Below are positions 188 to 60,237 of a DNA stretch of 64,000 nucleotides, in pieces; position 1 is the first letter of the stretch; the number at the start of each line of letters is the position of its first letter. Source of the DNA: Eledone cirrhosa (Eukaryota); assembly GCA_964016885.1 (NCBI GenBank), contig OZ024742.1:322090001-322154000 (forward strand), read 5' to 3'. The position numbers and the translations under genes are program-made. The notes beneath the pieces are model-generated. The model ran no database searches and was not told where the DNA came from. It saw only the letters and a program-made list of their open reading frames with translations.

Positions 188-228
188 GATTTACAATTGT
201 TTCATCCTCGTGGGACTTATCAAAATCG
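188..228 (-). ncRNA. Minimal type-I hammerhead ribozyme, U3-A8 core variant (Penelope pLTR type)
   Basis: Minus strand reads gatt TTGATAA gtcc-cacga-ggat GAAA caattg TA aatc: stem I gatt/aatc, 4-bp stem II, palindromic stem III loop CAATTG, GUA cleavage triplet. Confidence 0.7.
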
Positions 229-1062
229 ATTATTTTATAAATAATCACCACAACATGTTCATCTTTTTGAACGCACAAACATCCCTGAGAGTTTTTATTA
301 CATTTTACAAAACTCCTTAGTCATCAACTTGTTGATGAATACATATGTATATGACGCAACACTGATTCATTGTTCCATAACTATTATATATATATATATG
401 TGTGTGTGTGTGTGTGTGTGTGTGTGTGTGTGTGTGTGTGTGTGTGTGTGTGTGTGTGTGTGTGTGTGTGTGTGTATTAGGTGGCCCCATGCTGTCAAAA
501 AGGACGGCTTATTGTAGTATCAACTATAAAAAGGGTCTGTCTTTCTCTCGCTAAACGACGTTTCCTTTCAATTGCACTCTCCATTACTGAAACCAACCTA
601 AGCTCGTAAGATTTAAAGCCACATAAAGCAGGCCATCACTTATAGTTGATGTAAAAACTTCCTAGTTAAAATGTATTACATACATACATTTCTTAATATA
701 AATACATTAGGTACATGTATGAACTGTTAAATTAAGGGTAGATGTGTATTTGTATAACATTTCAACTGCAGTCGTTTTATATTCTTGATAATTCTAACTT
801 ATTCCGATATTGCTAGGGACTTGACCCCTTGGAAAACACATACGCACATACACTCACACGCATACATTCACACACACACACACACTCACACAAGTGTAGC
901 CAATCTAAGAACACTGGTTAAAAATAATTATTACATATACACACATCTTCACAAACATATACATAAACAGACTCATTAGAGAAAATAATTATTACATGCA
1001 CACACATTGTTCACTGTTTTCTATACTTTGTCACACCCTCTTCTTTCCACACTCATCACATA

Positions 1063-1236
1063 GATTGGCAGTATCGGTAGAGGGAGGATGCTTTGCAGTA
1101 TAGAGTTACGCTCCTTTACGGTCTGAGTTCAAATCCCGTCGAGGTTAACTTTATCTTTCATCCTTACGATAAAATAAAGTACCAGTAATGTACTGGGATA
1201 ATTGCTGGCCTTGTGCCAAAAATAGAAACAATTATT
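1063..1236 (+). mobile_element. tRNA-derived SINE (dominant family in window)
   Basis: A-box TGGCAGTATCGG, B-box GAGTTCAAATCC, central ctttcatcctt...gataaaataaagtaccag, 3' ggccttgtgccaaaa...gaaacaattatt; about 10 copies in window. Confidence 0.8.
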
Positions 1237-2051
1237 TTATATAATGTATCTGTTTATGTATATGTTTATATACTCATACATAGATGAGTTACATCCCTTT
1301 GTGTGACAAACAAATACACATTGGCTATTATATTAGTACATACGTATTATATTAGTAGATAAATATAAAATAGCACGCGTGTTTGTCTAGTCTCCTATGC
1401 ACTCAAACCCAGTGGACCAATCATGTTGAAAGTTATCATATGGGTTCCTTAGATTCAGGAATAGGTTTTCCTCATACTTAGACCTATATTCATTTGTTTA
1501 TCTGTTTGTTTGCCTGTTTGTCAATCTGTGACCATGATGGTCGTCGTGAATTATCGTCTTCACCACGGCGGAATGTGACGGGAAATAGAAAAAAAATGAA
1601 GAAGTGAAAATTTGACAGAAAGTCAGAACACGTGAAATTAAATAGAGTGCTGAAAGCCAAAGATGGAACTAAACAATAAACACACACTTGCTTCAGTATT
1701 TGACGTCCCCCGCTCTCCTGCATGAAAGGAGGTACGACTAAAACAAGTGAGCGACACGCGTTCAATCAACATAAAGCAACAACACCCACCAGCTTTATCA
1801 AAATCTGCTCTCTCCTCTATCGGCTGCAGCATATTTTGTCTTACATTCTTTATATATCTTCCGTGTGTGTATATATATGTCATATCTGCTTCATATTTAT
1901 CCCGTTTGAGAGCATCGTGTTTGTATTTTAACGCACGCTAAGGGAAGTAAGTAACTCTGAGTAAGTCGTGGTTGTAGTTAATGGTGACACTGTTGACATT
2001 TCACCGTTTATCATCACTACCAACGTTATTTTTCCATTTTTAAATAAATAA

Positions 2052-2637
2052 CTAGCAGAATGGCCCGGCGTTGCTCGGGATTTGCTCTAGAGTTCTTATA
2101 TATTTGATATATATTTATCCTTAGCGAGCCTCGTGAAATAAATACGTTTGTTTATATTTTGTTATTGTGTATGCAAAAATATCTGTACACGAATATTTAA
2201 TTATATATATATATATTAAAATAAAATATTAAAGTTTAAGCAAAGAATCGCTGCTTTCACCCTTAAAGGGATCTTCTGAAACTAAAAAAATCAATCTGTG
2301 AACGCAGAAGTAAATATTTCGAAAAATATTACACACTATATATATATATATATATACACACACTATATATACATATATACACACACACACACACACAGAT
2401 AGCGTCATAATGTCGTAATGCAGAGAGCCAGACATACAGACAGATATTATAAGGGCACGACGTCGTAGCTATGTATCTATCTAAAAAGAAAGACTAAGAA
2501 TTATAGAGAGAGATCGCTAAATCACCTAATGCGGCCCCTAGGGCATTGAAAATTTGAAAACAATCAGTTGGGTGGTTCTCGAGTTTTAGGGAGTCAGGCA
2601 GACAGACAGACATTCTCTGTTTTAGATATGTAGATAG
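2052..2637 (-). mobile_element. Non-autonomous Helitron-like element
   Basis: Minus-strand 3' end has hairpin cccgagcaacgccggg followed by CTAG; 5' end ctatctacatatctaaaa...(gtct)n; the same 3' motif occurs at 55788 and 60528. Confidence 0.55.
2233..2283 (-). ncRNA. Hammerhead-like motif, family E (A4 core variant)
   Basis: agttt CAGAAGA tccctttaagggt GAAA gcag-cgattct-ttgc TT aaact; stem I agttt/aaact. Confidence 0.55.
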
Positions 2638-2639
2638 TG

Positions 2640-3670
2640 ACATGGGAAGCTGCATGCAAAAAAGTACCATCGAAGAATAGACCTTCATTTGGAAGACGTC
2701 TCGGAAAGCTATGACAAAGCAGCTACAAAGGGAGAATGGAAGTCACGAGCAGCGACAAGAAAGACTCCAAAAACAAAGAAAAACAACAGCAAAATATAGG
2801 CAAAATCAGAACAAAGACCAAAAAGGCTTGCACATGATGGAGAGCAACTATTGGTCAGGGAGAATTAGATGTACGAAACTACAGCACAAAACAGAGAGGA
2901 TGAATCAGATGCACAAAGATCATTAAGGCTTTAACAACAAAGAATAAGAAGTGCACAGAATAGACAGGATGAATTAGAGGAACAGAGGTCAAAAAGGCTT
3001 GCTGGAGATAGGACAATGAAAGCAACTATTCTTCAAGAGGAATCAGATGTACGAAAACCATTAAGACAGTAAATGGAGAGAAACTGAAGCTCAGACAATT
3101 CAAAGGCTATGTGAACATAGAGCAAGAGGAGAAGATTTATGATTTTAAAAGGTTGCCGAGTGGGGCTTTGCTGCTTTTAATTACAATCCACTTCAAAACT
3201 ATGCCTCAGAACCTTTAATTCAAATTTCCTCAATGAACACAATTTATCCAAATTATGGTGCTAAAAAATGGAATGGTGATCAACTGGATTGTGCTGTTTA
3301 AATGGAAAGATTAAGTTTAAACTATTACCTGAACGACCAGAAGCCTTGAAGGGAGTGCTGATTGATAGAGCTACTGAATCAAGACACTTTTTTCAAAATA
3401 GCCAAAGGTAAAATAATGCATTCAAATGACATCATTTGGTGGCTTTAAACCCACTTTGAAGATCCAAGGGCAAGTGAAATATAGAATTGGACCACTTCAG
3501 TCACTTTTAGAAGAATCAAAATATTTACAACTGTATTTCATCAGTGATATGACAACACAAGAACAGACAAGATATAAAAGTAATAAATAAATGAAATTAT
3601 ATTGCAACTACAAGATATGTTTACATACAAGAAGCAGTCATATTAAAAGTTTCAAATATACCCTAGAAGA
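2640..3670 (+). pseudogene. Degraded Helitron Rep/helicase N-terminal region
   Basis: Across frameshifts and stops reads FNYNP...IQISSMNT..GAKKWNG...ATESRHFFQNSQR*NNAFK/MTSFG...KIQGQV..RIGPLQ...KYLQLYFISD, typical of the region upstream of Helitron_like_N. Confidence 0.7.
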
Positions 3671-59259: not shown

Positions 59260-59346
59260 ATATATATATATATAAAGAAAAAATGATAAAATCGAAAATG
59301 CAACTGGAGTCTTCTTTTTAAAAATATATATATATTTATTTGGTTC

Positions 59347-59382
59347 CTTTACCGGTTTCGCAGTTCTTCTGCTTTTCAAAAG
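59347..59382 (-). ncRNA. Minimal hammerhead, U3-A8 variant
   Basis: ctt TTGAAAA gcag-aagaa-ctgc GAAA ccgg TA aag; degenerate sister at 36745-36783. Confidence 0.7.
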
Positions 59383-59562
59383 TAGAGTTGAGATAGAGGG
59401 TGTGTGGTTTTTCTCACATCTGGTTGGTCTTTGAATGTTACTTGCACGTGACAGCCATAATTTCATTTATAACCAATCAAATTACATTTTTTTTAAAAAA
59501 GCCTTCGTGAGCCCCTATTTTTAAGTAAAATGTAATTCAAACATATATGAAAAAAACAACCT

Positions 59563-59795
59563 GGAAGGAAGTGTATTAGTCAAAAAGAGTGTCATATTCG
59601 ATACATATGAAAATGAAACAATATATGAGAAAGAAAAAAATTTTGTTTAAATCAAAGAGAAAGTAAGAGAAAGTAAGATAACCCCTCACTCTTACTTTCT
59701 CTTTGATTTAAACAAAAATGTTTTCTTTCTCATATATTGTTTCATTTTCATATGTATCGAATATGACACTCTTTTTGACTAATACACTCCCTTCC
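59563..59795. repeat. Inverted repeat, about 105-bp arms
   Basis: 59563-59669 vs 59688-59795. Confidence 0.9.
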
Positions 59796-60169
59796 ATTTT
59801 TATCTTCCGCATATAAATGATCGCGCGCGTGTGTTTATACGCGTGCTTTCATACTTGTATGTGTATATATTTAATACCTAAATCTGGATGTACATTATTT
59901 TTCAACTTATATTATATACGTATTGGTCACACATACACTATTATGCTTGCCCTCATATACGCACTTACGCACACACACATTTTCACTATACACATGCATT
60001 TGTACATACACACATATGTACATTTGTGAGTGAATATATACACATTTATACACATACCCTAACTATATTTCCTTATTTTTTTATATATATCTTGCTTTGT
60101 TTTTTTTTTGCCCGTTAAACTCTTGCCTTTCTTGAGGAGATTTTTCAAATATTTCACTGCTTTAAATTG

Positions 60170-60237
60170 CCTTGTCCGATGAACGAATGAGGACGTTTTT
60201 CGTATTCGTCTTATTCGGGAAACCTCTGGTAATGAGG
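60170..60237 (+). ncRNA. Hammerhead-like motif (C4 variant)
   Basis: ccttgt CCGATGA a cgaatgaggacg..cgtcttattcg g GAAA cc-tct-gg TA atgagg. Confidence 0.6.

Follow-up and report, generated by a model that had tools for sequence, protein, structure and literature searches.

The window analyzed here, a stretch of 64,000 nucleotides (nt) from the genome of Eledone cirrhosa, contains a series of short motifs with the three-stem outline of the type-I hammerhead ribozyme, along with (TA)n tracts, a fragment of a GIY-YIG endonuclease open reading frame (ORF), remnants of other retrotransposons, and several minisatellites and dispersed repeats. The original prediction, made from the sequence alone, described the motifs as a dense population of tiny, TA-targeted ribozyme retroelements. 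On the basis of the data presented below, the hammerhead-shaped motifs are genuine. Very probably, they are the type-I hammerheads of the 3' terminal repeat (pLTR) of Penelope-like elements (PLEs), left by 5'-truncated and often inverted copies that likely inserted into (TA)n by means of a GIY-YIG endonuclease (EN) and a reverse transcriptase (RT).

Hammerhead motifs in the window and in the genome

The motifs were searched for with a type-I descriptor (stem I of at least 3 bp, a 7-nt core, stem II of at least 3 bp, GAAA, a stem III hairpin or palindrome, and UH), the relaxed cores of which were derived from those in the motif list of the original prediction. The window gave 17 matches, against a mean of 0.47 and a maximum of 2 in 40 local dinucleotide shuffles; for the canonical CTGANGA core alone, the numbers were 5 and 0.07. 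An excess over shuffled sequence had been set beforehand as the test of the prediction, and it is seen in the window as well as in the genome sample described below. Stems I to III in type-I order, far above the shuffled level, were recovered at 14 of the 18 positions listed as complete motifs (188, 2233, 4110, 5692, 6971, 20766, 23289, 26654, 27133, 35270, 35325, 48378, 59347 and 60170), and the other four (31591, 34615, 49073 and 57164) are members of the same repeat families with a mutated or 2-bp stem. The descriptor also matched at 9659–9739, a genuine motif absent from the earlier list and with homologues elsewhere, and at 12360 and 54132, where the matches are probably due to chance. 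Palindromic versions of loop 3 are present in several families, as predicted. A scan with the Rfam hammerhead models gave no matches in the window at gathering thresholds. The supposed half motifs at 26450 and 60450 are indeed 3' halves, of type-I hammerheads with 65–90-nt stem II regions, and the one at 28690 proved to be full-length, with a non-canonical core. A reading of these three as permuted hammerheads (SGC/CSG, block orders as defined in PMC10085705) was rejected: each of them is a type-I motif whose stem II region is long. Rather than about ten unrelated families, we count some 16 families and subfamilies (F1 to F16, Table 1), several of them interrelated and five of a single, Hydra type.

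The descriptor was then applied to 118 evenly spaced 10-kb regions (1.18 Mb) of the 3.0-Gb assembly, with the targeted region L050 left out; this sample is spaced rather than random, consists of large contigs only, and misses stem II regions longer than 70 nt. It yielded 101 canonical matches versus 2.5 in shuffled sequence, and 148 versus 14.3 for five cores together, tandem arrays and two satellite false-positive regions being included in these counts. Because the relaxed cores came from the earlier list, the 60 regions taken after the descriptor was fixed constitute a fair test, and these contained 56 canonical matches versus 0.6. A census of NNGANNA cores revealed a clear excess for CTGANGA, TTGANAA and CAGANGA only, with smaller excesses for others such as TAGANAA and AAGANAA (6 versus 1.5 each). 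By extrapolation, the genome would hold about 250,000 canonical motifs (bootstrap 176,000–331,000) and about 340,000 in total (248,000–438,000), which corresponds to one motif in every ~9 kb. Motif density in the window is about double this, and the predicted spacing of one motif per 3–4 kb applies to it and not to the genome at large. Published counts include ~9,000 hammerheads in Xenopus (PMC4209133) and, in another survey, more than 6,000 in Acropora and ~5,000 in Mytilus (PMC7229834). The largest that we met in the literature searched is the 126,247 of the axolotl (PMC7229834); a motif number of the present order was not found there, and neither was a genome-wide ribozyme survey for an octopus or any cephalopod. 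The main text of a repeat annotation of Octopus vulgaris (PMC13282606) mentions neither ribozymes nor Hydra elements.

Base pairing is preserved among genomic copies in the two sets that were checked for stem covariation. In an alignment of 21 F1 copies, 94.5% of the cells are paired, a value reached in none of 500 shuffles, and the 3–8 pair is U-A in 15 copies, C-G in four, U.G in one and unpaired in one. In the F5 group (81 copies, gathered by their flanks only), loop 3 is TATATA in 54, TGCGCA in 10 and the wobble-compatible TATGTA in 15, so that 64 of the 81 are perfect palindromes and 15 more can pair via G.U; the stem II sequences of this group differ greatly and yet mostly retain a hairpin, 26 of the 47 distinct ones folding at z < -2. 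The F2, F3 and F9 families are too young for covariation to show.

Link to Penelope-like elements

Eight of the families lie downstream, and on the same strand, of ORFs encoding Penelope-like RT and GIY-YIG domains, five of them of the Hydra type and three of the Neptune/Nematis type. Most of the motifs are thus not the tiny ribozyme retroelements of the original prediction: the eight families are 5'-truncated 3' ends of protein-coding elements. The distance from the EN to the hammerhead is characteristic for several families, namely 936–940 nt for F2 at three independent loci (L027, L034, L044), 1073–1123 nt for F3 in 19 of 44 copies (at loci chosen by their 3' untranslated region, UTR), mostly 223–335 nt for F4/F4b, the window copy included (ORF at 56522–56893, motif at 57164), about 204 nt for F8 (L077 and L236), about 1.2 kb for F11 (L300, L302, L306, L226) and 1.1–1.4 kb for F10. 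The F9 hammerhead lies 908 nt past an EN at one locus (L175/L207), with further-off EN matches at three others, and for F5 there is a single ORF-bearing locus (L098/L201), its UTR shared with L113 over 1173 nt. The RT followed by a C-terminal GIY-YIG domain within a single ORF was found for F2 (L050), F3 (L194, L185, L200), F5 (L201) and F9 (L207). For F4, F8 and F10 only the EN end was seen, and for F11 the EN, plus a Hydra-type RT nearby in L298. Locus L200 carries a near-intact F3 RT and EN together with a 3.54-kb head-to-tail tandem, and a genome search with the 5' end of the F3 ORF gave at least 864 candidates.

The Hydra clade of PLEs is defined by RWK and DKT motifs, a CxCx5C linker, the lack of a CCHH motif, and CxxC and CxH around the catalytic E and N residues of the EN (PMC8557442). 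The F3 ORF contains the complete set (with RWR in place of RWK), namely DKT, CxCx5C, CxxC..E and CxH without CCHH, and the EN-side motifs are present in F2 and F5 (CxCx5C) as well as in F8 and F11 (the CxxC..E/CxH layout); among 120 homologues, DK[TS] occurs in 108 and CxCx5C in 114. By these motifs, F2, F3, F5, F8 and F11 match the Hydra clade. CCHH-bearing ENs lie upstream of F4/F4b, F9 and F10, with a Cx2-5CxxC linker in F9 (L207) and the F4 type (L193 and window position 56522) and the CCHH layout alone in F10, which suggests a Neptune/Nematis type for F4, F9 and F10, the two clades not being separated here. The labels assigned at first, Neptune for the F2, F3 and F5 ORFs and Poseidon for that of F9, were dropped; the linker motifs give the Hydra type and the Neptune type, respectively.

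Insertion anatomy

The association with TA microsatellites that the original prediction proposed, together with the PLE-type fold, is supported, with a qualification: the motifs were said to lie between (TA)n tracts, and this describes their 3' side much better than their 5' side. Within 200 nt, (TA)5 or longer is present on the 3' side of 14 of the 18 window motifs and on the 5' side of seven; both sides qualify for 10 of the 18 if the distance is extended to 500 nt. Genome-wide (114 matches, the tandem arrays L076 and L056 being excluded from this statistic and retained in the density counts), the 3' side shows such a tract within 200 nt in 75% of cases versus 12% at random, and the 5' side in 22% versus 12%. 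The 3' ends of the copies fall at two discrete points, the end of the pLTR or the pLTR plus a tail of 80–100 nt, and both adjoin (TA)n. In the evenly spaced regions, (TA)4 directly adjoins the 3' end in 26 of 32 F2, 30 of 36 F3, 6 of 7 F5 and 7 of 7 F9 pieces, with a weaker contact in F11 (3 of 6) and F4 (8 of 17). The 5' ends are scattered, the number of copies covering a position increases sharply at the hammerhead, and inverted arms are frequent. A pLTR or partial tandem with a hammerhead (the tandem in L200), 5' truncation, inverted arms and a tail at a single end are all present, and the insertion anatomy as a whole is the signature published for PLEs (PMC8557442). It points to a probable Hydra-type insertion into (TA)n. 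Of the F3 pieces in the evenly spaced regions, 25 of 36 start within the long stem II (reference positions 40–59), and the truncated copies at 7437–7721 in the window are comparable. Stem II is a possible drop-off point for the RT, although subfamily divergence may contribute.

A mechanism compatible with these features would begin with the element's GIY-YIG EN nicking a (TA)n tract. Reverse transcription would start near the 3' end of the RNA and usually abort within a few hundred bases, so that the hammerhead would be the part most often copied, and nested insertion into TA tracts would pack many families together. Pairing would be kept in the master elements and not in dead genomic copies. 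The ribozyme itself is most likely a slow cutter of tandem precursor RNA, assisted by dimer formation or by protein, and is probably dispensable for individual insertions, which would explain why families with altered cores still spread.

Variants of the catalytic core

Canonical or U3-A8 cores are present in F1, F3, F4, F5, F7, F8, F9, F10 and F12. F2, F15, a subfamily of F11 and the sister subfamily of F10 depart from the canonical core. Of 57 F2 copies, 48 have the core CAGAAGA (A4) and none has the canonical CTGAAGA. No variant at position 4 reaches 5% among 16,102 aligned contigs of one sequencing run, and the four contig runs that were aligned to the F2 stretch reflect variation at the DNA level only. 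Eleven intact F2 motifs in 1.18 Mb would amount to ~30,000 genome-wide. Two other organisms also have contigs with pieces of the F2 stretch (45 and 13 contigs; shallow matches). In F11, CCGA (C4) is found in 15 of 21 copies, at loci picked with a C4 query; an interpretation of C4 at 60170 as private decay, based on five other copies with CTGA, was rejected, and C4 is a trait of the subfamily. The F15 core is CCGAWGG or CTGAAGG, with CCGAWGG in copies that are 95–100% identical (at least 1996 genome candidates, the best 40 of them within this range), and GCAA replaces GAAA in at least 11 copies of the F10 sister subfamily. The F14, F15 and F16 motifs (60430, 28618 and 26416; also L070, L097, L314 and L007) are related to each other by branched stem II regions of 60–90 nt with a common GATC-rich arm, and several of their copies have C4 or T6 cores. 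Among previously described deviations are U3-A8, U10.1.U11.1 and the viroid U4C (PMC3088659). Natural A4, G9 and C13 hammerheads were not found in the literature text searched or in the supplement of the 2014 survey of PLE hammerheads (PMC4209133), a weak absence since figures were not covered, and CAGAAGA had no matches in the searchable part of that supplement. Whole multi-copy families with A4, C4, C4 plus G9 or GCAA cores were likewise not found in the literature searched.

Alternative explanations

Several observations weigh against the assignment of the motifs to PLE pLTRs or against their reading as functional folds. The F1 covariation count is sensitive to relatedness, since the four C-G copies may represent one event. 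Of ten motifs folded alone, that at 5692 is the only one with the whole hammerhead as its minimum-energy structure; the z-scores of the ten lie between -2.5 and +0.7, and in F2 the core is sequestered. Such a scarcity of hammerhead minimum-energy folds agrees with published reports that PLE hammerheads have low activity (PMC4209133). Several families have a stable stem III and would not depend on dimer formation. For F1 (0 of 27 copies), F7 (0 of 32), F6 and F12 to F16, no linked ORF was identified, and these families may be short non-autonomous elements. Near F2, opposite-strand ENs are almost as frequent as same-strand ones (10 versus 9), as inverted arms would lead one to expect, and the link between F2 and its ORF therefore depends on the constant distance. 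Pfam names no Hydra-type ORF or EN and recognizes one RT weakly, and the clade assignments stand on motifs rather than on a tree.

That the matches merely arose by chance in AT-rich, repeat-rich DNA and were multiplied by repeats is extremely improbable. The relaxed cores do have a real background (TTGANAA, 19 versus 6.1; TTGANGA, 9 versus 3.7), satellites gave false positives in L056 and L263, and shuffles do not model repeat amplification; the canonical core, however, stands at 101 versus 2.5, and a common geometry, on the sense strand and at the 3' end of the element, recurs in dozens of distinct families and is accompanied by compensatory changes, so that for the canonical, A4 and U3-A8 families chance is already excluded. 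More serious, yet still unlikely, is the view that most motifs are small non-autonomous ribozyme elements, retrozyme- or SINE-like (short interspersed element-like), that are transcribed into short or circular RNAs of their own and rely on borrowed PLE proteins. It would account for the families without an ORF link and for the many F5 copies that start ~60–70 nt upstream of the core, where the query may introduce a bias; ORF-free hammerhead arrays exist elsewhere in the genome (units of 482 nt in L204 plus L076 and of ~311 nt in L238), and retrozymes have been described as PLE derivatives (bioRxiv 10.64898/2026.07.22.740005). Against this, eight window families continue into PLE ORFs, the 5' ends are heterogeneous, and no head-to-tail hammerhead array is present in the window. 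Retrozyme organization, that is, head-to-tail non-coding monomers of 150–450 nt, each with a hammerhead, was recognized solely in L204/L076 and L238.

The remaining alternative, which we regard as rather doubtful, is that efficient cleavage in vivo defines the template: monomers cut at H17 would be circularized, as proposed in PMC4209133, and rolling reverse transcription would yield the partial tandems. The retention of G5, A6, G8/A8, G12, A14 and A15.1-U16.1 across families speaks for it. The set of ORF-bearing F3 copies comprises 35 of the 40 matches listed, without tandem duplicates. In 33 of them the element continues for 40 nt or more beyond the predicted cleavage site on its upstream side; of the other two, one begins at about +2 and one lies further downstream in its start. 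Upstream of the ORF, 26 of the 35 retain an intact hammerhead, a feature that re-ligation into a circle would restore. A pile-up of 5' ends at H17 was looked for in short pieces and in these F3 copies and was not found. Since nearly all of the F3 copies extend past the site, linear RNA produced by cleavage can be ruled out as the main template, a result that leaves uncut read-through RNA or a re-ligated circle as possible templates. In the Poseidon element PAc of Anolis, cleavage by the hammerhead depended on protein, insertion in vitro could do without it, and RNA-seq data contained no ends from it (PMC11167929), which also argues against a template defined by efficient cleavage. The assignment to the pLTRs of PLEs, with the hammerhead probably dispensable for each insertion, remains our preferred reading.

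Features of the window and neighboring repeats

The hammerhead-related features of the window are listed in Table 1. The genome searches made per family returned 200–2,100 candidates each, which are lower bounds.

Table 1. Hammerhead-bearing and related features of the window (EN, endonuclease; U.U and U3.G8, non-canonical pairs)
Feature	Position	Strand	Remarks
F1 hammerhead, U3-A8 core, loop 3 CAATTG	188..227	-	Descriptor match; at least 214 genome candidates; no ORF link found
F2 hammerhead, core CAGAAGA (A4), U.U at stem II base, stable stem III	2233..2283	-	Hydra-type PLE 3' end
F3 5'-truncated Hydra-type PLE arm: 3' UTR, hammerhead 4110-4203, tail	4018..4920	-	Ends at (TA)33
F3 inverted partner arm, hammerhead 5692-5785 (U3-A8, 54-nt stem II region)	4921..5797	+	Ends at (TA)20, without tail
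F4 inverted pair between TA tracts: intact 6971-7013 (+), mutated mirror ~6836-6878 (-)	6684..7225	.	
Three 3'-half F3-type hammerheads, truncated within stem II	7437..7721	.	Absent from earlier list
F12 hammerhead, canonical core, palindromic loop 3	9659..9739	+	Descriptor match; homologues vary in stem II
F13 hammerhead-like motif, weak stems; degenerate second copy 6409-6462	10404..10447	+	Descriptor does not match
F5 hammerhead, canonical core, loop 3 TATATA	20766..20831	-	Hydra-type PLE 3' end
F6 minimal hammerhead, loop CG, U3.G8 here	23289..23322	+	Descriptor match; most relatives CTGATGA
F2 copy truncated at core	25852..25913	+	Another half at 34981-35015
F16 fold-back, 3' half of type-I hammerhead	26416..26480	.	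Full forms in L070, L314 have ~90-nt stem II region
F5b hammerhead, canonical core, loop 3 TATATA	26654..26709	-	Descriptor match
F7 hammerhead, canonical core, long stem II	27133..27214	-	At least 1926 candidates; no ORF link found
F15 inverted pair, core CCGAWGG (C4, G9), long stem II region	28206..28757	.	Type-I outlines 28618-28706 (+), 28257-28345 (-)
F2 copy, stem II mutated	31591..31640	+	
F8 hammerhead, 2-bp stem II plus U.U	34628..34666	+	Hydra-type PLE 3' end; inverted partial arm 32050-32097
F2 head-to-head pair, A4 core	35266..35376	.	35266-35324 (-), 35324-35376 (+)
F10 sister subfamily, GCAA replaces GAAA	36747..36794	-	Same change in 10 other copies among matches listed
F3 5'-truncated copy, hammerhead 48378-48471	48286..48800	-	
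F9 5'-truncated Neptune-type PLE, minimal hammerhead ~49073-49107	48984..50527	-	5' boundary approximate
GIY-YIG EN ORF fragment (CCHH type), PLE	56522..56893	+	~270 nt upstream of 57164 motif; motif-based, no Pfam match
F4b hammerhead, imperfect stem I	57164..57207	+	
F10 hammerhead, U3-A8, loop 3 CCGG	59347..59382	-	Downstream of CCHH-type ENs at other loci
F11 hammerhead, C4 core CCGATGA (subfamily trait)	60166..60241	+	Hydra-type PLE 3' end; at least 2132 candidates
F14 3' half of type-I hammerhead, ~65-nt stem II region	60430..60466	+	Full form in L097

Other retrotransposons are interspersed with these features. A fragment of a non-LTR retrotransposon of the restriction-like endonuclease (RLE) type at 32096–34595, with RT, CCHC and KRPDG motifs (RVT_1, E = 3e-5), breaks off inside the endonuclease, has an 11-nt direct repeat at its borders, and lies between the inverted arms of the F8 PLE copy, where it possibly arrived by insertion or by template-switch capture. 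Two long interspersed elements of the APE-RT (apurinic/apyrimidinic endonuclease-RT) kind, which we take to be L1/Tx1-like, occupy 12550–18250 and 41540–47250 (minus strand), the first with an open ORF2 of 1156 amino acids and an ORF1 of 536. At 57670–59260 (minus strand), a ~620-nt unit is present in about 2.5 tandem copies between TA tracts, joined to 3'-end pieces of the F4b and F9 types; no hammerhead was detected in this unit. Minisatellites and a microsatellite are located at 51332–52016 (38-nt unit, 18 copies), 47295–47589 (72-nt unit, 4 copies) and 23880–25206 (a 1.3-kb (ACT)n tract). A dispersed SINE-like repeat of ~180 nt is present in many copies, e.g. at 1060–1235, 10080–10260, 20310–20495, 31270–31460 and 39570–39760, and sits in PLE 3' ends at other loci. 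Outside the window, the retrozyme-like array at L204:3623-9940 and L076:449-3403 (G000:C11, ~14.995–15.004 Mb) consists of ~482-nt non-coding units with a canonical hammerhead each, seven on the minus strand followed by 14 on the plus strand, and ends in TA tracts; the array of ~311-nt units at L238:8596-9720 is comparable.

Comparison with known systems and implications

The basic system is already known: (TA)n-targeting PLEs that carry a hammerhead in the pLTR have been described, in octopus as well. Hydra-1_Obim of Octopus bimaculoides prefers (TA)n and has a canonical hammerhead near its 3' end (PMC8557442, supplement), and the Hydra-clade elements published there resemble those of E. cirrhosa in targeting (TA)n, in having a type-I hammerhead close to the 3' end, and in their truncated 5' ends, inverted arms and tail. 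Shared protein features are the C-terminal GIY-YIG domain without CCHH, the CxCx5C linker, RW[KR], DKT, and CxxC and CxH around the catalytic E/N. The same WFNPP, NRNT and GLYRDDG blocks can be recognized by eye in published Hydra proteins. Nevertheless, the elements described here have 3' UTRs of ~1–1.2 kb and a unit of 3.54 kb, whereas published Hydra PLEs are generally shorter than 3 kb; their tails measure 80–100 nt, compared with 30–40 bp in published Naiads and other PLEs; and their copy numbers, unlike those of published Hydra elements, reach tens of thousands. Differences extend to the cores, with A4 in F2, U3-A8 and a 54-nt stem II in F3, and C4 in F11, as opposed to CTGAAGA in Hydra-1_Obim. 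The position of F9, F4/F4b and F10 behind CCHH-bearing ENs, with the Cx2-5CxxC linker in F9 and the F4 type, is shared with PLEs of the Neptune/Nematis clades.

The 2014 survey (PMC4209133) reported many heterogeneous solo minimal hammerheads derived from truncated PLEs, with pairs on opposite strands and molluscan cases in Lottia and Crassostrea. The present motifs agree with that set in being of type I, with a short stem I, a palindromic loop 3 and the U3-A8 variant, and depart from it in that several families have a stem III of 4–5 bp or a stem II region that is long and branched, and in number, ~2,000–9,000 per genome there and an estimated 250,000–340,000 here. Metazoan non-LTR retrozymes (PMC7229834) also contain type-I hammerheads in repeats, and HHR_Amex2 has a U.U at the base of stem II; they are, however, head-to-tail non-coding monomers, whereas the motifs of the window are dispersed 3' fragments of coding elements.

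The contribution of the present analysis thus lies in the scale of the phenomenon and in the natural core variants. Because Rfam recognizes none of the window motifs and the annotation of O. vulgaris is silent on them in its main text, a large class of structured DNA is unannotated. We tentatively consider it possible, although not probable, that this genome is the densest in hammerheads on record (85–115 per Mb, 250,000–340,000 in total) and harbors young, spreading families with fixed core changes (A4; C4; C4 plus G9; C13) in which the three-helix fold is kept, so that either a PLE protein rescues the altered cores, or the fold serves mainly as a landmark for protein docking or reverse transcription, with catalysis dispensable. 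The role of PLE hammerheads has been called unclear (PMC8557442). Families that are young and near-intact, with canonical and altered cores and F3 among them, provide matched material for testing this role, and, if the above interpretation is true, it could be tested directly on sister subfamilies with no difference outside the core.

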